From an uncultured Candidatus Saccharibacteria bacterium (lineage in GTDB: Bacteria > Patescibacteriota > Minisyncoccia > Phycocordibacterales > GWA1-40-21): a stretch of DNA of 64,000 nt. Shown in pieces: positions 16,852-33,098 of the stretch. The position numbers were made by a program, and so were the translations under genes. Position 1 is the first letter of the stretch. Each line of letters begins with the position of its first letter. The notes below the pieces were generated by a model. It saw nothing but the letters and a program-made list of their open reading frames with translations. It ran no database searches and had not been told where the DNA came from. The DNA lies in NCBI GenBank assembly GCA_964567825.1, contig CAZMNX010000001.1, positions 34,775 to 98,774 of the forward strand, written 5' to 3'.

Positions 16852-18282
16852 CTATATCTTACCATAAATCTTATAATGGTAGCCGTAACAGTCCCCTTTG
16901 GCGATTCCTTTTAAATTATCAGTCCTAATAAAAGTTTCACCCCACTCCGACGGGCTAACGTTCATGATATATTTATGATCTCTTAATAAATAACTTATAT
17001 CAGTATGGTAGTCATTAATTAATATAGTCTTTACTAAAAAAATATCTTCAAAATGTTGGTGAGCGGCGATAATTGGCCGGTGTTTCTCCACCCATTCGTT
17101 GAGCCAGCGACTGGTCACAAAGGCAGTATTTAATTTTTCATATTTTGCTATCTGATTTTTAATCACCTGAACACACAAACTCTGCTGGATTTGATCCCCA
17201 TTTTTTTTATTGATATCAACAATATCCGACAAGCCTAACAAAATAAAAACAGCAAAAACTAAAATAAAGTAAGCAGCCTTGTTTTGAAAAAAAATCTTTT
17301 CTAGAACCAAGCAAATACACAGAATAAAAATGGGGTACATTATGAAAAAATAACGCCAGGCGAATAGGGGTGTAATCAAAGTAATAATAGAAGGAAAAGC
17401 GAAGCAGACACCGAGACCAATAATTAAAATTCTTTCGGTCAGGTAAGAGTTACTATTTTTATGATCTTCATTTTTTCGAATAAAATGGCTCGCAATAAAA
17501 TAGGCGAATAAAATCAAAAATGGAATTACTAAAATATCGTTTGACGACATTGCACTAAAAGTGGCATAAATATCACTAAATTTTGTCGGTGGCATCCAAT
17601 TGCCATATGACGTTCCATTAATTTTCCGAATAATTTGAACCAAAATAAAGAACCAGACCGGCAAAGCCGCCACAAAAATTATCAAATGTGACCAGATTAA
17701 TTTTTTAGAATCAACGATTTTCTGCCTAAATTTATATAAGATAACTACATTAAACAATAATACGAATACTCCAAAAATATGAGTATATAGGAGGGCTAAA
17801 TTGGCAAAAATATAGCCCGGTCTAGAATATTTTTTTGGTTTAAATAATAAACTAAATAAAAAGTATAGGGAGATTACGGCCAAAAGAAATAACAACGAAT
17901 ACATTCTCGCTATTTGGGAGTAGGACATATGAAAAATAGAGAGAGAAACGACACCGGTAGCCAAAAGTGCGGCTCTTTTACCAAAAAAGTCCAGGGCAAA
18001 CTTAGCAAAGACAATAATACCGATCACTCCAAAAATTACTGATAATATTCGCAAGTTAATTTCAGACATACCAAAAATAATACTGAAAAGTTTAGCTATA
18101 TAAAAATATAAAGGAACATGAACATCATTGTACATTTGCACATTCATGTCTACAAAACCTCTACCGATAATATCGTAGGTATACCATTCATCATGCGAGA
18201 ATGGAAAATTTAGAGGATAGATTCGTAAAAATACACCGAAAGCGACGATGACACCAATTGCAAAATAATAAGCTTTTTTCAT
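16852..18282 (-). CDS. GT-C fold membrane glycosyltransferase (GT39/ArnT/PMT-like)
   Basis: Polytopic membrane protein (>10 TM) with an HDE motif in the first loop, directly downstream of a polyprenyl-phosphate sugar synthase-like gene. Confidence 0.45.
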   Translation of the reverse strand: MKKAYYFAIGVIVAFGVFLRIYPLNFPFSHDEWYTYDIIGRGFVDMNVQMYNDVHVPLYFYIAKLFSIIFGMSEINLRILSVIFGVIGIIVFAKFALDFFGKRAALLATGVVSLSIFHMSYSQIARMYSLLFLLAVISLYFLFSLLFKPKKYSRPGYIFANLALLYTHIFGVFVLLFNVVILYKFRQKIVDSKKLIWSHLIIFVAALPVWFFILVQIIRKINGTSYGNWMPPTKFSDIYATFSAMSSNDILVIPFLILFAYFIASHFIRKNEDHKNSNSYLTERILIIGLGVCFAFPSIITLITPLFAWRYFFIMYPIFILCICLVLEKIFFQNKAAYFILVFAVFILLGLSDIVDINKKNGDQIQQSLCVQVIKNQIAKYEKLNTAFVTSRWLNEWVEKHRPIIAAHQHFEDIFLVKTILINDYHTDISYLLRDHKYIMNVSPSEWGETFIRTDNLKGIAKGDCYGYHYKIYGKI

Positions 18283-19448
18283 TAGTATTTATTGCGTAAA
18301 AAATTATACTGGATGAACAAAAAATCTCTTAAAGTCAGCAACGTGTCCCGCACTGGTCGCAAACTCGAAGCCCGGTCATCTTTCCATCGAATCGGTACCT
18401 CCAGTATTTTATAATCATAAAATTGCGACACAGCCAAAAACTCCAAATCAAAACCAAATCTTTTAATTTGTTGTTTACCAAAAATTTCTTTGGCAACCTG
18501 GCTTTTCATCAATTTAAAACCACATTGTGTATCCTTAATATCCTTAATAAGGGTAGAACTTAAAATTGAACCCGCGCGGCTGATTATTTTCCGATAAAGG
18601 GGCTGTTTCAGTTCGATTACGCTCTCCTTTAGCTTTCGTGAACCAATTACAACGTCAAATTCACCAATATATTTTTGTAGGTTTAGAAGTTCTTCGATCG
18701 GAGTAGAACTATCGGCATCCGTAAACAAAATATATCTTCCCCTACTATTTTCTATCCCAAGCTTGACCGCATTACCTTTTCCTTGATTCGGAATTACATC
18801 AATTTTTTTCAACACCGCTGTGTTGAATTTAAAATCCGACACTTTTTTCGAAGTATCATCCCTAGATCCATCATTCACTACTATGACCTCGCACTTGTGG
18901 CCAAAAGATTTAAAAAAATTATCAATAGATGCCAAAGTTCGGAGAATTCTATCGCCTTCATTATAGGCCGGAATCACAATCGAATAATCAAAATCATATT
19001 TCACTTCTAAAAATTCTTTTTTTTCAAAAATTTTAAAGGTCCAACGCTTATTGCCCCAATAATTCCAGTATAAGACCAGCAAAGAAGTGATTATTTTAGC
19101 CAAGATGTACCACAGACCAGCGACAATGTGTAAAAAATACATAAGCAAGAGGGTGATACCCAAACCAACCAACGAAATTATCAAAAATTTCAGATATTGG
19201 TGGTGATAAGCCTTGCTTTTATTACCAAAAGTCCAGAGCTTATTCCAAATGAAGTTATTGGTGGCCGCCAAGATAAAGGAGATGGTGGCACCCCAAATGA
19301 CGCCAAAACCCAAATATTCAACCAAAACAAACAAAAAAACTAGGTCAATAATCGTACCGGTAGTCCCCACCACACAATAACGAATCATTCGCTTAATTTC
19401 TTTCATGTTTGTGTGAAAATAATAGCATATTTCAACAAATTTACCCAA
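18282..19448 (-). CDS. GtrA-like TM domain fused to a GT2 polyprenyl-phosphate glycosyltransferase (DPM1-like)
   Basis: N-terminal four-TM GtrA-like region, then VIPAYNE, DGSRDDT and DADSSTP (DXD) motifs. Confidence 0.65.
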   Translation of the reverse strand: MGKFVEICYYFHTNMKEIKRMIRYCVVGTTGTIIDLVFLFVLVEYLGFGVIWGATISFILAATNNFIWNKLWTFGNKSKAYHHQYLKFLIISLVGLGITLLLMYFLHIVAGLWYILAKIITSLLVLYWNYWGNKRWTFKIFEKKEFLEVKYDFDYSIVIPAYNEGDRILRTLASIDNFFKSFGHKCEVIVVNDGSRDDTSKKVSDFKFNTAVLKKIDVIPNQGKGNAVKLGIENSRGRYILFTDADSSTPIEELLNLQKYIGEFDVVIGSRKLKESVIELKQPLYRKIISRAGSILSSTLIKDIKDTQCGFKLMKSQVAKEIFGKQQIKRFGFDLEFLAVSQFYDYKILEVPIRWKDDRASSLRPVRDTLLTLRDFLFIQYNFLRNKY

Positions 19449-19539
19449 AGAACAGGCTTCTTAAGCATCTTATTGCAAGGTAAATACCGATTATGATACA
19501 ATTGTTAGATATTAATTATTTATTACTAATCTTAATCTA

Positions 19540-20112
19540 ATGACTAAAGTCCAAAAGTATCTTCTGCCCATCACTCTAGTTTTAGCAATCATTTTTGGTG
19601 TTTCTACTTCTCTTTTAAAAAGTAAAAATCCTGGCGATGCCATAAGTAATCTCGGCGCCGCCGTCGTCTCAACTATGGGTTCGGGTAGCAGTAGTTCAAG
19701 GTGGACATGTGATCCAGGTCCCGATCCAAGTGGGTGTGTTCCAGGAACGCATATAATGAAAACTTTCGTATTAAGGGGCTGTGGTTGGACCCAAACATAT
19801 GAAGGCTGCTCAGTTAGTTGTGGTGCAGATCCTATGCTTCCCTATCCCAATCCTATGTCGCGCTGTTCTGGAATTAAAACCATAACAAAAGAGTATAAAA
19901 ACTGTAAGTGGGTAGACGGTAGTCCGAAGTGTGAATATAATAGTTGTTCTTTGGCGCGAAAACCTAGAAATGGCTGCGCTAACAATGTTACCTTAACATC
20001 TTGGAATCTGGACCGAGCTTCCTGCTCGTGGAAACCAGTATATTTACCCTGCAGTATGTATGGTCTGACGAGATGTGATCCAAATATTACAGCTGAAAAT
20101 AAGTGCATCTAA
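19540..20112 (+). CDS. Cys-rich secreted/anchored protein 1, with a leader identical to that of the 20997 gene
   Basis: Signal/TM YLLPITLVLAIIFGV plus a Gly/Ser linker; 21 Cys in 136 aa of the mature part; the first 53 codons plus 21 nt upstream are identical to the paralog. Confidence 0.6.
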   Translation: MTKVQKYLLPITLVLAIIFGVSTSLLKSKNPGDAISNLGAAVVSTMGSGSSSSRWTCDPGPDPSGCVPGTHIMKTFVLRGCGWTQTYEGCSVSCGADPMLPYPNPMSRCSGIKTITKEYKNCKWVDGSPKCEYNSCSLARKPRNGCANNVTLTSWNLDRASCSWKPVYLPCSMYGLTRCDPNITAENKCI

Positions 20113-20948
20113 TGGATAAAAAATACCAAAACTTTTTGGAGGTGCTAGGCCCAAAAAATGCTCTTATTATAGGTTTGGTTAGTGGAATATTATTAATCAG
20201 TACTATCGGTTTCATTGTTCTTGGCTCCATGGCCCTAAACGGCGGAGTAAATTGCTCAGCAAACATTGATACTGATCGACTAGCGACCGACAACGCCCAA
20301 CAGCCTTTGACAGAGGCCCCAAAAACCGACAAACCAAAAGTGGAGTTGTTCGTCATGTCTTATTGTCCGTTTGGATTACAAATGGAAAAAGCTTATTTGC
20401 CAGTCATGGAACTATTGGGTAAAAAAGCTGATATTGATATAAAATTCGTCAATTACGCCATGCACGAGAAGAAAGAAGTTGACGAAAATACCAGACAGTA
20501 CTGTATCCAAAAAGAGCAAACCGAAAAATACACCAACTATCTTAAGTGTTTCGCTTCAACGGACAAATTTGATACTTGTTTAGCCGGTGCGCAAATTGAC
20601 GAATACAAACTAACGGCTTGTATTACTAAGGCTGACAAAGAATTCAAAATTAGCAAATCTTACGACGATAAAGCTAACTGGCTAGGTGGACAGTTCCCCG
20701 CGTATCTTATTCATCAAGACTTAAATGTTAAATATGGCGTGCAGGGCTCCCCAACCCTAGTAATTAACGGAGTTCAAGCCGAAGCCGATAGAACCCCAGA
20801 AGCGGTCAAAACAGCCATTTGCAACGCTTTTAACCAGAAACCAGCCGAATGCTCAACAACATTAAGTAACCAAGGTTTCCAGCCAGGATTTGGAACTGAA
20901 GTTGAAGCTGCTGGACCTACGGCTGCGTCAACAGACTCATGTAATTAA
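20103..20948 (+). CDS. membrane-anchored thioredoxin-fold protein (DsbA-like, CPFG variant)
   Basis: N-terminal TM, then VMSYCPFG in a thioredoxin-like context; several further Cys; lies between the two Cys-rich genes. Confidence 0.45.
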   Translation: MHLMDKKYQNFLEVLGPKNALIIGLVSGILLISTIGFIVLGSMALNGGVNCSANIDTDRLATDNAQQPLTEAPKTDKPKVELFVMSYCPFGLQMEKAYLPVMELLGKKADIDIKFVNYAMHEKKEVDENTRQYCIQKEQTEKYTNYLKCFASTDKFDTCLAGAQIDEYKLTACITKADKEFKISKSYDDKANWLGGQFPAYLIHQDLNVKYGVQGSPTLVINGVQAEADRTPEAVKTAICNAFNQKPAECSTTLSNQGFQPGFGTEVEAAGPTAASTDSCN

Positions 20949-20996
20949 AATTAATACTGTGTTAAGATTAGTGGGTTTATTACTAATCTTAATCTA

Positions 20997-21632
20997 ATGA
21001 CTAAAGTCCAAAAGTATCTTCTGCCCATCACTCTAGTTTTAGCAATCATTTTTGGTGTTTCTACTTCTCTTTTAAAAAGTAAAAATCCTGGCGATGCCAT
21101 AAGTAATCTCGGCGCCGCCGTCGTCTCAACTATGGGTTCGGGTAGCAGTTCGAGTAACGGGCCTTGTTCGAATGGCAGGCCATGTTGTGGCGGTAGGCCG
21201 TACTCTGGTTTCGAACGTTGTTGCAATGGCGTAATATACGATAGTGAATCTTGGCAGGGCATTAATCCAGATGGCAGTATCAGTGACCATGACCGAGTTT
21301 GTTGTGGTGGTAGGGTTGTGGTAGTTGGGAATGATAGTCGCTGGGTAGGTACTATATGTTGTCAAAATATCAATACTGTTAAGACTTATAATCGTCGCCA
21401 TTGGGATTGTAGCTCCACGGGAATATGTCTACTAAATGAGACCAGAGTTTGTGGTGGTTGCGCAAATCAGCCTAATCCACTAGAGGCACCTTATTGTGTT
21501 CAATATGATACGGGGGCACATATGATTCACCGCACATGGAATAGTCAAAGATGTGCTTATGGTGATTTCCAATGGACCGATTGTGGTCCTGGTTCTCGAT
21601 GTAATAGCACAGGGACAGCTTGTCAAAGATAG
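20997..21632 (+). CDS. Cys-rich secreted/anchored protein 2, with the identical leader module
   Basis: Same 53-aa N-terminus, then a different Cys-rich domain (CCGG repeats; 26 Cys). Confidence 0.6.
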   Translation: MTKVQKYLLPITLVLAIIFGVSTSLLKSKNPGDAISNLGAAVVSTMGSGSSSSNGPCSNGRPCCGGRPYSGFERCCNGVIYDSESWQGINPDGSISDHDRVCCGGRVVVVGNDSRWVGTICCQNINTVKTYNRRHWDCSSTGICLLNETRVCGGCANQPNPLEAPYCVQYDTGAHMIHRTWNSQRCAYGDFQWTDCGPGSRCNSTGTACQR

Positions 21633-21668
21633 TTTTGTTTTGGTGTCTGATTTTTATGCTATAATAGT

Positions 21669-22136
21669 GTGAGTATGGAAAAAGTATCACTTACTTGGCA
21701 AGCACCTGAATATAGTCATTACAAAAGGAGTACTGACTGGTTTTGGGCGGTGGGAATTATTACTATCTGCATTGCGATATTAGCCTTCGTTTTTCACAAT
21801 GCCCTTTTTGGAATTTTAATTTTATTATCTGCCGGTATCTTAGTTTTTTATACTATTCGTGAGCCCGGCACGGTTGAGTATGAAATAAATCAACGCGGTA
21901 TTGTAATTGGTAAGGAATTACACCCCTATCTGACGATCGAAGCTTTTTGGATTGAAACTCGTACCGGTGAACCAAAAATAATTTTGCGTTCGAAAAAAAA
22001 TGTCTTGCCTTACATTATAATTCCCCTCCATGAGGAAAGTGTAGACGATGTCGCCTCGGTTTTATCTGAATTTCTGGAAGAAAAAGAATTGCAAGAACCG
22101 GCCTCTCATAAAATCATGGAGTATTTGGGTTTTTAG
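21669..22136 (+). CDS. hypothetical membrane protein (two TM, PH-like C-terminus?)
   Basis: ORF with two hydrophobic helices (WFWAVGIITICIAILAFVF, LFGILILLSAGILVF). Confidence 0.35.
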   Translation: MSMEKVSLTWQAPEYSHYKRSTDWFWAVGIITICIAILAFVFHNALFGILILLSAGILVFYTIREPGTVEYEINQRGIVIGKELHPYLTIEAFWIETRTGEPKIILRSKKNVLPYIIIPLHEESVDDVASVLSEFLEEKELQEPASHKIMEYLGF

Positions 22137-22179
22137 TCTTCTTATGTTAAAGTCTCTTTTAAGCTCCTAGCGGAGTAAT

Positions 22180-22254
22180 GCTCTCGTCGTTCAATGGATA
22201 GGACACTTCCCTGCGAAGGAAGAAATCCAGGTTCGATTCCTGGTGGGGGCACCA
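22180..22254 (+). tRNA. tRNA-Arg (anticodon GCG by hand folding), encoded CCA
   Basis: Acceptor GCTCTCG/TGGGGGC (three G-U pairs), D-arm GTTC-AATGGATA-GGAC, anticodon stem CTTCC/GGAAG with loop CTGCGAA, T-arm CCAGG-TTCGATT-CCTGG, then ACCA. Confidence 0.6.
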
Positions 22255-22287
22255 TAATAAAAAACCACCCATTCATTGGGTGATTTT

Positions 22288-22554
22288 TTATTTACTATTT
22301 TTTGCTATAAGTTTGGCTAATCTAGATTTCTTTCTTGAAGCCGTATTCTTGTGAATTAAGTGGGTCTTGCAAGCTTTATCTATCGCCTGATAAGCGGTAG
22401 CCAATAAAGCCTCAGCTTCTTTAACTTTCTTTTCTGATACTAGTTTTTTAATTTTCTTAACTGTCTCAGAAATCGCATCTTTTCGGCGAGCATTAAAAAG
22501 TGCCTTATTTTTTGAGGCGCGTAGGGCTTTTTTGGCTGATGAAGTAATCGGCAT
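22288..22554 (-). CDS. rpsT: 30S ribosomal protein S20
   Basis: MPITSSAKKALRASKNKALFNARRK... typical S20. Confidence 0.85.
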   Translation of the reverse strand: MPITSSAKKALRASKNKALFNARRKDAISETVKKIKKLVSEKKVKEAEALLATAYQAIDKACKTHLIHKNTASRKKSRLAKLIAKNSK

Positions 22555-29722: not shown

Positions 29723-29761
29723 AAACGTAAAAGGTCCGGCGCGATGTGCTCGCGCCGGACC
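29721..29761 (-). terminator. rho-independent terminator of GC-rich cassette C
   Basis: GGTCCGGCGCG-ATGTGCT-CGCGCCGGACC perfect 11-bp stem, followed on the minus strand by TTTTACGTTTTT. Confidence 0.55.
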
Positions 29762-29785
29762 CCTCCCTAACCTCCACCCAGACTC

Positions 29786-30220
29786 TTACTCTGTCTGGTA
29801 TTCCTCGATGATTGTAATGAACGAATACCGCTTGACCCCATAGGCGTAACCACGCATGATGTCCCTCATCCCCCGATACTCTTCGCGATAGCCGAAGTTG
29901 AACGAGAAACGATTGTACCACCAATAGTAGTACCAGCCTTCAGTCTGCACGAACTCGCGCCAAGCCTGCGGGTTGAACTGGACGAGTTTTGCACTGTAGC
30001 CCCGCCCCGCTGAAGTTATTGCCACTCGCATAGGCCGAGTGTCAATTCGTGTCACCCACACCCAAGGGGCCGACACGTGCCATCCGCCTCGTTCTTGTAA
30101 CCACATCTTGCCATTGAACCAATTCCTGGCAAGGCCAACCTGAGTGAGGTCGGTGTAGTTCAGAAAAGACAGATAGAAAAGCAGGACAAAGGCCAGAACG
30201 GCCACAATCTTCCTTTTCAT
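29786..30220 (-). CDS. GC-rich cassette C gene 2: SPFH/band-7-like small membrane protein
   Basis: Start MKRKIVAVLAF is a TM helix; GWHVSAPWVWVTRIDTRPMRVAI and AKLVQFNPQ resemble the N-terminal half of an SPFH domain; the ATG overlaps the upstream stop (ATGA). Confidence 0.4.
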   Translation of the reverse strand: MKRKIVAVLAFVLLFYLSFLNYTDLTQVGLARNWFNGKMWLQERGGWHVSAPWVWVTRIDTRPMRVAITSAGRGYSAKLVQFNPQAWREFVQTEGWYYYWWYNRFSFNFGYREEYRGMRDIMRGYAYGVKRYSFITIIEEYQTE

Positions 30221-30768
30221 TTTCCACTTCCGACCGAGGCGGTAGGCACACCAGCCTGACTCGGCGCAAGCTCTTTGCCGACGATGAGAAACGGGCAATC
30301 CCGCCCAGCTTCACTGTCAAACGCGTAGCACCGAAGAATTTCCGCCAGGTCGTTACGGCTGTCTCCAGCCTTCCGACCATGCCAGCGCAGAAAAACGTCG
30401 AGGCCCTTCGGATCAAACTGCACAAGCTTGGCATTCAGTACCCGGCTGCTTATGCTGCCGACACCCCCACCACCCGACGACGTTCCGTTGAGCCCGCCAG
30501 TGATCTGCACCTGAATTGGGCGTAGATCGATCGCGTGCACGCTGTAATGGAACGGATTGCGGATGAAGTAGCCGGTGCGATCAAGATGCTCGATCTCTCC
30601 GGTGTACTTGTTGAAGGTGAACGGAAATTCGTAGTTGTCCACGAACGTCACGAACACGACCCGGAAGAACAGCAAAGCGATGAGCGCAACGCCCAACGAA
30701 ATGCCGCCCCAGACCAGGACGCCCGACAGGCTGATGCGAAAACGAAACTTGCTCGATGTATCATTCAT
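30217..30768 (-). CDS. GC-rich cassette C gene 1: SPFH/band-7-like small membrane protein
   Basis: Start MNDTSS preceded by SD AGAGG; TM helix; GYFIRNPFHYSVHAIDLRPIQVQI and NAKLVQFDPKG are stomatin/HflK-like. Confidence 0.4.
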   Translation of the reverse strand: MNDTSSKFRFRISLSGVLVWGGISLGVALIALLFFRVVFVTFVDNYEFPFTFNKYTGEIEHLDRTGYFIRNPFHYSVHAIDLRPIQVQITGGLNGTSSGGGGVGSISSRVLNAKLVQFDPKGLDVFLRWHGRKAGDSRNDLAEILRCYAFDSEAGRDCPFLIVGKELAPSQAGVPTASVGSGK

Positions 30769-30868
30769 CTCGAACCTCTTAGTTTTGACGAACACACAGA
30801 TCTCTTGGCGAAATACCAAGTTTAATCTCCGTCGCAAGGTTATCACACAATAGACTATTTGTCAACTG

Positions 30869-30941
30869 TCCGCCCAGTTGGAATCGAACCAACGACCTTC
30901 TCCTTAAAAGGGAGCTGCTCTACCAGCTGAGCTATGGGCGG
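30869..30941 (-). tRNA. tRNA-Lys (TTT)
   Basis: Acceptor CCGCCCA/TGGGCGG, D-arm GCTC-AGCTGGTA-GAGC, anticodon loop CTTTTAA, T-arm GTTGG-TTCGATT-CCAAC; the 3' end faces cassette C. Confidence 0.75.
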
Positions 30942-31008
30942 ATTGAAAAGAATATAACAAGAAAAAACCCAAATGTCCAATAATATTCCGACTATACAAT
31001 ATCAAAAA

Positions 31009-31052
31009 AGAGGCCGGTGGTGGGAATCGAACCCACACACCGCCTCCCATAT
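31009..31052 (-). terminator. tRNA T-arm-like hairpin plus T6: terminator of cassette D, or a tRNA 3' remnant
   Basis: On the minus strand GGCGGTGTGTGGG-TTCGATT-CCCACCACCGGCC is followed by TCTTTTTTGA. It has a T-loop-like TTCGATTCC, but no complementary 5' acceptor strand could be found. Confidence 0.4.
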
Positions 31053-31092
31053 TTGTTCTCCACCTCCAAACTAGATGTCTGTCGAGCCCCGT

Positions 31093-31947
31093 TCAGCCAA
31101 CGCCGACCATAACCTCCTGTGGCGGGAACGACGTCAGCATCCAACCCGCCCGGAGGCCAAGTGAGGACGTCTGCTCGCCATCGAGCATCTTCTCGACCAC
31201 CCCCGCCCAGAACAGATCGGCGGCCAAGTCACTGCGAGTTCGCGCGCGTTCCATGGCGACCAGAACCTTCCTGACGTAACCGATGGAGTGCGAAGCCACG
31301 AAGGCATTCATACCCGTCTTGTCGTTCATGAAGGGAATCTCGGCTTTGGCATCGTCCCGAATCTGAGACGAAACGTTCCAGAGTGCCCGCAGAGCTGGAT
31401 CATCGATCGTCGCCATTTCGGCTTCGCCCTCTTCGAGTGGCGAATCCACGTCAAACGAAGCTTCGGCCGCCGTTCCGCTGTCGCCCTTCAGAGCTGCAGT
31501 CACCTCATCCAGAAAGTTCGGATGGGGATTCTTCACGTCACCACCGAACTGACCGAATAGCCCGTCCTTCTTGGCGAACACCCGGAACCCAGAGCAGATC
31601 ACTCCCTGGTCGAAGATGCCGCGCATGGCCGGCAACTCGCGCAAAATGCATTCCCAAGCGAAACGCATCAGCAGGTTGCCGTCCTCCCTCGCCCGCTGCG
31701 CGCTCTGAATCCGCCTGCCGAACTCGCCGAGATTGGGCAGACTGATCAGGCCGCCGGACAGCGACTCCATCACTTTCTCGCGACCGTAATGGTAGAACGC
31801 CCGCCCCATGGGATCGGTCAGGACACCGATCTCCTCGTAACCCCCTGGGGCCTCTGTTCTATTGACAGTGCAGATCTCCGACGGGACGTGCCCGTTCAAA
31901 ATCTCACCCACCAAAACGAACGCCGACTTACTCTTGCTTGTGCTCAT
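31093..31947 (-). CDS. GC-rich cassette gene D: unknown protein, paralog of the 9425..10333 product
   Basis: About 60% GC; ATG at 31945-31947 preceded by GAAAGG; shares DPMGRAFYHYG and ADLFWAGVV..(n)..LGLRAGW motifs with cassette A. Confidence 0.5.
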   Translation of the reverse strand: MSTSKSKSAFVLVGEILNGHVPSEICTVNRTEAPGGYEEIGVLTDPMGRAFYHYGREKVMESLSGGLISLPNLGEFGRRIQSAQRAREDGNLLMRFAWECILRELPAMRGIFDQGVICSGFRVFAKKDGLFGQFGGDVKNPHPNFLDEVTAALKGDSGTAAEASFDVDSPLEEGEAEMATIDDPALRALWNVSSQIRDDAKAEIPFMNDKTGMNAFVASHSIGYVRKVLVAMERARTRSDLAADLFWAGVVEKMLDGEQTSSLGLRAGWMLTSFPPQEVMVGVG

Positions 31948-32050
31948 GGCACTGCCTTTCTGGTCCAATAATGTGGACCGATTGACTAACCAACAACCGA
32001 ACAGACATCAAAAAACTACTAAACCTAAAAAGGAGATTAGCACGAATAAT

Positions 32051-32692
32051 CTATTGTGTCAAAGCGGCATCAATCTGGGCTTTAAGAGTTTGCAGATCCG
32101 TAACCTCTACCCCATTTAAAAGCAAAAAGGGTGTGTAGTCCAAAGCCAAAGCCTTGGCATCATTCAAATCAGCCTGAATAAAATCAGCAAATTTCTTTTG
32201 ATCAATATCGGCTTTAAATTTTACAATGTCTAAACCAACAGTTTTAGCGTAACTCACAAAAAGAGCCGTCGGATCTTTTATCTCGGCCCAATCATTTTGA
32301 TTTTTGTAAAGTAATTCACTCATTTCCCAATATTTACCCTGAGCATTTGCCGCCTCAGCAGCTTCGGCTGAAGGAAAAGCATTAATGTGTTGAGATAATG
32401 GAAAATTACGATACACAAAATTAAAATTGGGGTTGGTTTTATAAGAATCGGCAATTTGTTTTACAAAAGGTGAAACCGTAGCACAGGCTGGACATTGAAA
32501 ATCACCAAACTCTACTAAGGTAACTTTCGCTGTTGTTGTACCAGTCATGTGGCTATTTGGTCTAACCAACAAACTAAGGTCGCGGGCCTTACCATCATTA
32601 GGCTTCGGAGCAAACCAAATAAAAGCTCCGAGTAAAACTACGCAGATAACGACAATGCCAACAATCATTTTTACTTCACTATTTATTTTCAT
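32051..32692 (-). CDS. DsbA-family thiol:disulfide oxidoreductase, N-terminal TM
   Basis: FGDFQCPAC CxxC active site in a thioredoxin-fold context. Confidence 0.7.
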   Translation of the reverse strand: MKINSEVKMIVGIVVICVVLLGAFIWFAPKPNDGKARDLSLLVRPNSHMTGTTTAKVTLVEFGDFQCPACATVSPFVKQIADSYKTNPNFNFVYRNFPLSQHINAFPSAEAAEAANAQGKYWEMSELLYKNQNDWAEIKDPTALFVSYAKTVGLDIVKFKADIDQKKFADFIQADLNDAKALALDYTPFLLLNGVEVTDLQTLKAQIDAALTQ

Positions 32693-33098
32693 ATTTTCGA
32701 TAAATTAAAGTTAAACCGACAATAATAAGTGAAGCAATTAAAGATAAAAATGGAATGGTAATAATGCCGAACAGTTGTAAATCAACATCTGTACAAGAGA
32801 TGCCGTCTCGGCAGGGAACAAAATTTTCAGGAATCACTCCCCAATACAATAAATTATGAAAAAGGGCGACCAGAGTGGCCAAGATAGACAAGGGTAAAAT
32901 GTAGCGATAAGCTTTGGCATCCTTATAAATAATCGCCACGGCACTGATTACAACTAATGGGTAAACTAAAATTCTTTGATACCAACACAAAATACACGGT
33001 GCCCAGCCCAAAACATCGCTAAAATACAAGCTGCCCAGGGTGGCTAATAAAGAAAGGGCAAAAATCGAATATAAGCTATATTTTTTAATAAAAATCAT
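32679..33098 (-). CDS. disulfide bond formation protein B-like (DsbB/BdbC)
   Basis: Four TM with Cys pairs (CILCWYQR and CRDGISC) in the loops; overlaps the dsbA-like gene start. Confidence 0.6.
   Translation of the reverse strand: MIFIKKYSLYSIFALSLLATLGSLYFSDVLGWAPCILCWYQRILVYPLVVISAVAIIYKDAKAYRYILPLSILATLVALFHNLLYWGVIPENFVPCRDGISCTDVDLQLFGIITIPFLSLIASLIIVGLTLIYRKYENK

Follow-up and report, generated by a model that had tools for sequence, protein, structure and literature searches.

The stretch of DNA analysed here (the window) comprises 64,000 nucleotides of contig CAZMNX010000001.1 (NCBI GenBank assembly GCA_964567825.1, positions 34,775 to 98,774 of the forward strand), which comes from an uncultured Candidatus Saccharibacteria bacterium. 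On its forward strand there is a compact locus of three genes, namely gene A (19540–20112), a gene for a transmembrane (TM)-anchored, putative thioredoxin-fold protein (20112–20948) and gene B (20997–21632), which encode proteins of 190, 278 and 211 amino acids, respectively. Genes A and B start with the same leader, which is followed by a cysteine-rich ectodomain of 137 residues with 14 Cys in A and of 158 residues with 18 Cys in B. All of these Cys are in the mature part of the proteins, and the counts of 21 and 26 that had been given in an earlier reading of the letters without database searches (the sequence-only reading) were too high. The two leaders are encoded by an exact direct repeat, and we describe here this repeat, the DNA that it brackets and the way in which the arrangement may have come into being.

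An exact repeat at the start of two cysteine-rich genes

The repeat is 174 nt long and is 100% identical between copy 1 (19519–19692) and copy 2 (20976–21149), both in forward orientation, whose starts are 1457 nt apart. Each copy consists of 21 nt located 5′ of the ATG and of codons 1–51 of gene A or gene B, and nucleotide identity drops to random directly beyond both ends of the repeat. Since it is an exact 174-mer repeated within 64 kb, an origin by chance is ruled out. The identical module that had been noticed in front of both genes, at about 175 bp, is real, and its 21 upstream nucleotides are as described, but the identity over 53 codons holds only for the protein: the two products are the same to residue 53, codons 52 and 53 (Ser-Ser) are spelled differently in each gene, and the DNA identity spans 51 codons. 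The module had also been taken to contain the promoter; however, the repeat holds just 21 nt of 5′ leader, and the extended −10 element lies upstream of it. A short match, TGTTA(A)GAT, is present about 8 nt upstream of both copies, and the inverted repeats near the locus are weak (72–78% complementary).

Within the window, neither a comparison of DNA 14-mers on the two strands nor tblastn with the peptide of the leader revealed a third copy. When A and B were used as queries, including in a search of 5.8 billion proteins, no other leader-bearing protein was returned, and a degenerate pattern of the leader DNA matched only the contig of one relative (see below) in genome and metagenome collections, which do not include the window's own genome. 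With two copies in the window and the pattern elsewhere in a single relative's contig, the polymorphic exoprotein arrangement that had been suggested is not supported.

Sequences assembled independently of the window speak against an assembly artefact. The unique segment between the repeat copies is matched at 100% identity by two Logan unitigs (L004 and L005), which come from other runs. L004 extends from the last 30 nt of copy 1 to the first 30 nt of copy 2, and L005 begins just past copy 1 at 19697 and also stops 30 nt into copy 2, so that it contains the repeat at its 3′ end only; these end positions are explained by the behaviour of k=31 unitigs at a true repeat. Moreover, a 3020-nt contig from JGI sample 3300059473 starts inside copy 1 and runs through the A ectodomain, the thioredoxin-fold gene, the complete copy 2 and B into two downstream genes, and in this contig at least 75 nt of the leader continue in frame into the A ectodomain. 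Both genes therefore carry the leader in independent assemblies, and a collapse or duplication by a single assembler is ruled out by the two unitigs and the 3020-nt contig. Only the 145-kb parent contig of the window connects the upstream flank, by way of the leader, to A. The other assembly of the same sample is interrupted twice, at about 19194, where a contig with the upstream gene PMT_2 ends about 325 nt before the repeat, and at 19618, within the repeat. No independent contig that joins the upstream flank to A was found; this PMT_2 contig ends before the repeat, and the exact product of the GT2 gene next to PMT_2 is not on record.

A 1457-bp block that is absent from the nearest relative

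The nearest relative is a Candidatus Paceibacterota metagenome-assembled genome, whose 66.7-kb contig (the accession number in GenBank: JBAYUW010000003.1) carries P0003, the orthologue of gene B; the same sequence was recovered in two further samples (L002 and L003), and the lineage is represented by L001–L003. In this relative the gene order is PMT_2 and GtrA-GT2, both on the minus strand, and then directly the leader and B on the plus strand, and neither A nor the thioredoxin-fold gene is present at the orthologous locus. Homology between the window and the relative is continuous from the glycosyltransferase gene PMT_2 (16852–18282, minus strand) through the GtrA-GT2 fusion gene (18282–19448, minus strand) and the promoter region to the leader, with 68.9% nucleotide identity over 16873–19695, and it resumes in B. 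Because homology is continuous at both sides, the junction to the left of copy 1 is ancestral, and so is the one to the right of copy 2. What distinguishes the two loci is a block of 1457 bp (19693–21149, plus strand), which contains the A ectodomain, the thioredoxin-fold gene, a 27-nt spacer and the second leader, and which by this alignment is an insertion or deletion that the repeat brackets. The leader is fast-evolving, with 62% amino acid identity to that of the relative and the same codon in 33% of the conserved residues, yet the two copies in the window do not differ at a single position, which indicates that the event is very recent and took place within a tiny fraction of the time since the lineages split. 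A phage or other mobile origin of the block was also considered and rejected, as scans of viral contigs detected neither A nor members of the B family and the GC content of the block, including that at third codon positions (GC3), is the same as that of the host.

PMT_2 and the GtrA-GT2 fusion, the latter of the polyprenyl-phosphate-sugar synthase type, are syntenic and divergent from the cysteine-rich gene in both lineages (L001 7334–9876 in the relative), and their products could possibly O-glycosylate the Ser-rich linker. On the other side, synteny stops exactly at the stop codon of B (window 21633–22300 versus L001 10619–11900). In the window, B is followed by a gene for a 153-residue protein with two TM helices (a weak match to DUF5673), tRNA-Arg(gcg) at 22180–22254 and rpsT, and in the relative by genes for SET-domain, GIY-YIG and SWIB proteins. 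The gene for PilB is located about 7 kb beyond B in the relative and 42 kb away in the window.

A recombination tract inside gene B

A mosaic structure is found within gene B. Positions 21189–21497 (plus strand) are near-identical to the L001–L003 lineage, with 7 mismatches in 309 nt, only one of which falls in the first 207 nt. This corresponds to 98% identity against a background of about 69%, the flanks and the leader being about 55–75% identical overall, and in 60-nt windows of the flanks, the leader and the 3′ end of B the identity to the relative is 0.45–0.87. Among identical residues, the fraction encoded by the same codon is 94% in the tract, compared with 42–47% in PMT_2 and GT2 and 67% in the C-terminal part of B. 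The more distant members of the B family, at 40–52%, show no unusual conservation of the DNA in the tract. Given that synonymous sites are preserved in the tract and that these outgroups lack DNA constraint, the near-identity is not due to selection, be it on the protein or on a DNA element within the gene. Judged from these comparisons, the tract is the product of a recent recombination between lineages that are about 30% diverged in neighbouring genes. An assembly chimera is unlikely, because at the 5′ edge a mismatch every 10–15 nt prevents any k-mer from being shared and because each version is present in independent assemblies, three for the relative and two for the B gene of the window. 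The tract covers the N-terminal subdomain of B, and its 3′ end is near a low-confidence stretch between two blocks of strands in the structural model described below.

Leader anatomy and transcription

The leader begins with MTKVQK, which is followed by a hydrophobic core of 19–20 residues (residues 8–26, KD19 = 2.33) and then by KSKNPGDAISNLGAAVVSTMGSGSSSS; it is thus composed of charged N-terminal residues, a hydrophobic helix, a conserved NLGAAVVSTMGS segment and a Gly/Ser linker. There is no Cys in its 53 residues, the first one being residue 57 in A and residues 57–58 in B, so that the leader, which lacks the lipobox Cys, is not a lipoprotein signal. The core is long for a cleaved signal, and this length and the architecture of the family suggest an uncleaved signal-anchor rather than a cleaved signal, which fits better than the secretion of A and B that had been assumed earlier.

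The only promoter-like site upstream of A is TTGCAA-18-TACAAT with TG before the −10 hexamer (19473–19502, plus strand), which lies outside the repeat and whose TGATACAAT element is conserved before the B orthologue in L001–L003. No promoter was called before copy 2, where TGTTAAGAT at about 20960 could, by eye, be a weak extended −10. In addition, no terminator-like site was seen between A, the thioredoxin-fold gene and B, and the stop codon of A overlaps the start of the thioredoxin-fold gene (TAATG). The three genes probably form one operon that is read from the promoter at 19473–19502.

The ectodomains of A and B

No Pfam or NCBIfam domain was detected in the ectodomain of A or B. For the A ectodomain, neither the word-indexed search (5.8 billion proteins) nor a full phmmer scan (1.84 billion cluster representatives) returned anything but the ectodomain itself, and on the evidence of these searches it is a true ORFan. 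Knottin, defensin, granulin, EGF and FN1 mini-domains gave no sequence or fold match, and a literature search for cysteine-rich or disulfide proteins of Patescibacteria gave nothing relevant. By eye, both ectodomains show units of the form C-x(11-16)-C-x-W-x(5)-C-x(3-6)-C, and A shows a three-fold repeat of four Cys with marginal support (p=0.02–0.2). Homology between the two ectodomains was nevertheless rejected, with a BLASTP E value of 1.4, a Smith-Waterman comparison with shuffled sequences giving p=0.40, and a hidden Markov model (HMM) of the three Cys units of A that misses B; as far as sequence can tell, the mature domains are unrelated, as the sequence-only reading had it. A codon-usage coding test of A was uninformative, since the bona fide B domain scores equally poorly.

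The family to which gene B belongs is tiny and has no name; it comprises four lineages, i.e. B of the window, P0003 (80% identity to B, found in three samples), P0005 (57% identity) and P0006 (49% identity). The AlphaFold2 (AF2) model of B is all-beta with a pLDDT of 78.9, and no match to it was found among the folds in the PDB. The Cys counts in the family are 18, 18, 16 and 16, so that Cys numbers are even throughout, including the 14 of A. In P0006, the sequence W-D-C-S-S-T-G-I-C (B residues about 138–144) is replaced by W-V-W-G-P-T-G-V-G with the loss of both neighbouring Cys, and from this paired loss the two Cys are predicted to form one disulfide in the other members. The architecture of the leader (a TM helix, a segment of the type D-x-[VI]-x-N-[LI]-G and poly-Ser) is common to P0003 and P0006, which indicates that the leader is native to B. 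P0005 is a 366-residue fusion that contains a TM helix, an extra CC-rich motif, PG_binding_1 and then the B domain (L006 865–1965 / L007 1816–2916), and its gene is located directly downstream of a gene for a 318-residue type IV pilin-like (N_methyl) protein. The fusion to the wall-binding PG_binding_1 argues for an extracytoplasmic location of the B domain, and the arrangement of P0005 hints that this domain might work at the cell wall or pilus interface.

The thioredoxin-fold gene and the disulfide machinery

The protein encoded between A and B carries C-P-F-G behind a TM helix, in agreement with the TM-anchored thioredoxin-like protein described in the sequence-only reading, and the family to which it belongs has the invariant motif S-Y-C-P-[YF]-G and a GSPT loop of the cis-Pro type. 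It has 2506 homologues at E≤1e-3 with 50–64% identity in Patescibacteria, Magasanikbacteria names being among them. C85, P86 and G88 do not vary among 24 members of the family, and the residue at position 87 is either Y or F; the family has seven invariant Cys (the motif Cys and six others) and the GSPT loop, and its active site is a monothiol C-P-[YF]-G without CxxC. The protein scores 19.1 bits with the curated model GILT (cut-off 22.4) and 16.1 with Thioredoxin_2 (cut-off 27), several of its homologues have precomputed PF13098 or PF03227 matches, and a profile search against the PDB gave a weak match at the cis-Pro loop region alone (E=0.0085). The family looks like an uncharacterised, conserved envelope redox protein of the candidate phyla radiation (CPR), mostly below the curated Pfam thresholds. 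In three other genomes that were inspected, the gene adjoins recJ and has no cysteine-rich neighbours, and its linkage to A and B is therefore peculiar to the window genome. With the monothiol site, more than 2500 homologues and this recJ neighbourhood, the protein does not look like an oxidase dedicated to A and B, as had been proposed, and some redox or chaperone role on its co-translated cysteine-rich partners is possible.

The DsbA/DsbB pair that had been noticed at 32.0–33.1 kb was confirmed by Pfam matches above the cut-off for both the DsbA-like gene (32051–32692, minus strand) and the DsbB gene (32679–33098, minus strand). This pair, located 11 kb away from the locus, is the canonical extracytoplasmic disulfide-forming machinery of the organism, and the predicted disulfides of A and B are most likely made by it.

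Other features of the window

Abutting the DsbA/DsbB pair is a stretch of about 2.2 kb (29750–32000) with 55–62% GC in a genome of 40% GC, which surrounds tRNA-Lys (30868–30941, minus strand). The open reading frames (ORFs) in it (29786–30298, 30217–30846 and 31093–31968, all on the minus strand) have no Pfam match, and no Rfam match besides the tRNA was found; the stretch could represent an island of foreign DNA or a structured element as yet unrecognised. Furthermore, about 20 kb (33100–54100) are occupied by repeated pairs of a TrmB-family helix-turn-helix regulator of about 250 residues and a Peripla_BP_6 (LivJ-type) substrate-binding protein of about 350–380 residues. There are eight or so such pairs by the ORF list, two of which were verified by Pfam, and genes for a branched-chain-amino-acid-type ABC permease and ATPase and for a PemK toxin are found among them. 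This expansion of paralogues is unusually large for a small CPR genome.

Discussion

A recombinational origin, by duplication or gene conversion, is the only reasonable explanation of the identical leaders. It had been suggested from the repeat itself, and it is supported further by the relative, which is without the block of A, thioredoxin-fold gene and second leader, and by the 309-nt tract in B. We assume that the ancestral locus would have consisted of the promoter, the leader and B, as in the nearest relative, and that a recent homologous recombination would have placed an ORFan cysteine-rich domain and a relocated copy of the thioredoxin-fold gene between the leader and B, with a copy of the leader left on each side of the inserted DNA. 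In this way A would have gained the translation start, the anchor and the linker of B, and B would have stayed intact. The route might have been a single-crossover (Campbell-type) integration of a circular piece carrying leader, A and thioredoxin-fold gene, or an equivalent unequal exchange, and such a duplication and capture of the leader is the explanation towards which we incline, if only slightly above even. The same locus has also recently exchanged about 309 nt of the N-terminal subdomain of B with a lineage about 30% diverged. A and B would be held in the membrane by the N-terminal signal-anchor helix, with disulfide-bonded ectodomains outside the cell on a Gly/Ser linker, and they may act at the surface of an episymbiotic CPR cell. 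In our best reading, the locus is a recombination-prone surface-protein locus in a Paceibacteria-type CPR bacterium rather than a multi-member polymorphic system.

Several points weigh against this account. Recombination of one repeat with the other could have deleted the block in the relative, which would be the mirror image of an insertion in the window. Nothing marks the block as foreign, its GC and GC3 matching those of the host, and no donor locus is known for A or for the thioredoxin-fold gene. The direct search for leader copies covered the 64-kb window, and 81 kb of the contig and the other contigs lie outside it. Moreover, A lacks homologues, and the AF2 model computed from its sequence by itself cannot be used (pLDDT 48.7); A as a functional protein rests on an open frame of 190 codons, on identity in three assemblies and on a regular Cys spacing with a weakly supported repeat. 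Finally, the locus would look the same if conversion had acted on two older leaders that were paralogous.

In this last explanation, A and B would be old neighbouring paralogues in the leader only, each with a diverged leader of its own, and a recent gene conversion would have copied one leader over the other. Conversion accounts for the edges of the identical tract as well as the preferred account does, since the tract stops where any homology would have to stop, at the 5′ leader and at the Ser linker, the mature parts being unrelated. The locus shows a conversion-like exchange in the 309-nt tract of B, and the TGTTA(A)GAT match upstream of both copies might be a remnant of the older homology, although it is short and could be due to chance. 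However, conversion still needs an earlier insertion of leader, A and thioredoxin-fold gene exactly between the conserved promoter and the leader of B, and there is no trace of A or of the thioredoxin-fold gene at the locus of the relative; we regard it as unlikely, but as deserving serious weight. The repeat might also hide a mixture in the population or the assembly, in which some cells have only the leader joined to B, or in which a 1457-bp circle or tandem array exists and the contig is one path through a collapsed graph. The connections of the graph, i.e. from the upstream flank to the leader, from the leader to A, from A back to the leader and from the leader to B, permit a flank–leader–B molecule plus a circle or array, and the flank–leader–A link comes from the 145-kb contig alone, the other assembly of the sample being broken at the two positions given above. 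On the other hand, the independent contig has the A ectodomain in frame with its part of the leader and the thioredoxin-fold gene running into a full second leader and B, the unitigs from two further runs concur, and a 1.46-kb replicon without a replication gene is implausible. We consider such a mixture very improbable, and in every version of it the identical leader is present on both genes.

A programmed surface variation, in which the constant leader would serve as an expression and recombination handle for swapped cysteine-rich ectodomains, of the kind known from Mycoplasma vsp/vsa loci or from the orphan arrays of polymorphic toxins, would account for a constant leader on unrelated payloads, for the location of the locus at a synteny break and for the module-sized swap of the N-terminal subdomain of B, which ends at the low-confidence stretch between the strand blocks of the model. 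But the leader is present in just two copies, each on a complete gene, silent cassettes were not found in the 64 kb, the database searches gave no further leader-bearing protein, and no recombinase was noticed among the Pfam-scanned neighbours, which do not include every ORF of the window. Recombination between the direct repeats would only delete, and would remove the conserved thioredoxin-fold gene. Of all the explanations weighed here we give programmed variation the least credence. A broader form of the idea, in which the leader is a recombination handle with which CPR cells, having pili and ComEC for DNA uptake, capture and exchange disulfide-rich ectodomains behind one promoter, anchor and linker, seems to us a long shot, if not quite so far-fetched. 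If it were true, A would represent a surface domain that had either been captured recently or just arisen, the 309-nt tract would be direct evidence of modules moving between lineages about 30% diverged, and a mechanism for the modular diversification of surface proteins in episymbiotic bacteria would be at hand.

The capture of a leader by A, which we prefer, would provide a dated snapshot of the making of a new surface protein, in which the start, anchor and linker were duplicated and fused to an ORFan domain and the original gene was kept. In addition, the tract in B is a case, with sharp boundaries, of a surface-protein gene in which strongly diverged CPR lineages have recently recombined, and two uncharacterised pieces of CPR biology are brought to attention, namely a family of 18-Cys all-beta ectodomains and a widespread family of membrane-anchored proteins with a monothiol C-P-[YF]-G. 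The locus is not a new kind of system, and its value is that of a clean case study of a known type of event.

The locus may be compared with several known systems. A polymorphic toxin or a contact-dependent inhibition (CDI)/Rhs array does not fit, as A and B have no Pfam or NCBIfam domain and the position of an ‘immunity’ gene is taken by a conserved, housekeeping-type family of more than 2500 members. A diversity-generating retroelement does not fit either, with 100% identity, no A-specific mismatches and a repeat that covers the N-terminal anchor instead of a variable region at the C terminus, and no reverse transcriptase was noticed. Conotoxin and defensin genes, a model implicit in the sequence-only reading, combine an N-terminal targeting region that stays constant with disulfide-rich payloads that diverge, and A and B resemble them in having a constant N-terminal region on unrelated cysteine-rich payloads. 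The variable surface lipoprotein (vsp) clusters of Mycoplasma bovis, to which vlp and vsa are related, undergo site-specific inversion, whereas no recombinase was noticed at the A/B locus among the neighbours scanned with Pfam (not all ORFs of the window). In Mycoplasma bovis, the vsp genes are clustered and anchored N-terminally, with signal/anchor regions that are more than 99% identical and exposed parts that differ (PMC9630594). In architecture the locus is most similar to these clusters, as a near-identical N-terminal anchor with differing exposed parts is shared with A and B, but vsp has 13 members, a lipobox Cys and repetitive mature regions, while here there are two members with no Cys in the leader and no tandem repeats. 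In Helicobacter pylori, intragenomic recombination in the first ~60–240 bp of the paralogous outer-membrane adhesin genes babA, babB and babC makes chimeras in which the body of one gene receives the 5′ end of another (PMC4552749). As a process this is the nearest to the present case, in that an identical 5′ segment is found on otherwise distinct surface genes, and the size and position of the tract match the 174-nt leader. In contrast, the bab genes are homologous over their full length and occupy separate loci, whereas A and B are adjacent, are identical in the leader only and bracket an unrelated gene, and the locus in the window is without a phase-variable repeat. The locus therefore belongs neither to the vsp nor to the bab type. 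In a Campbell-type integration, the homologous segment is duplicated as identical direct repeats that flank the insert, and both flanking junctions remain ancestral. Although no circular donor, plasmid or phage is known for A and B, in keeping with the negative viral-contig scans, the locus shows exactly such a product.

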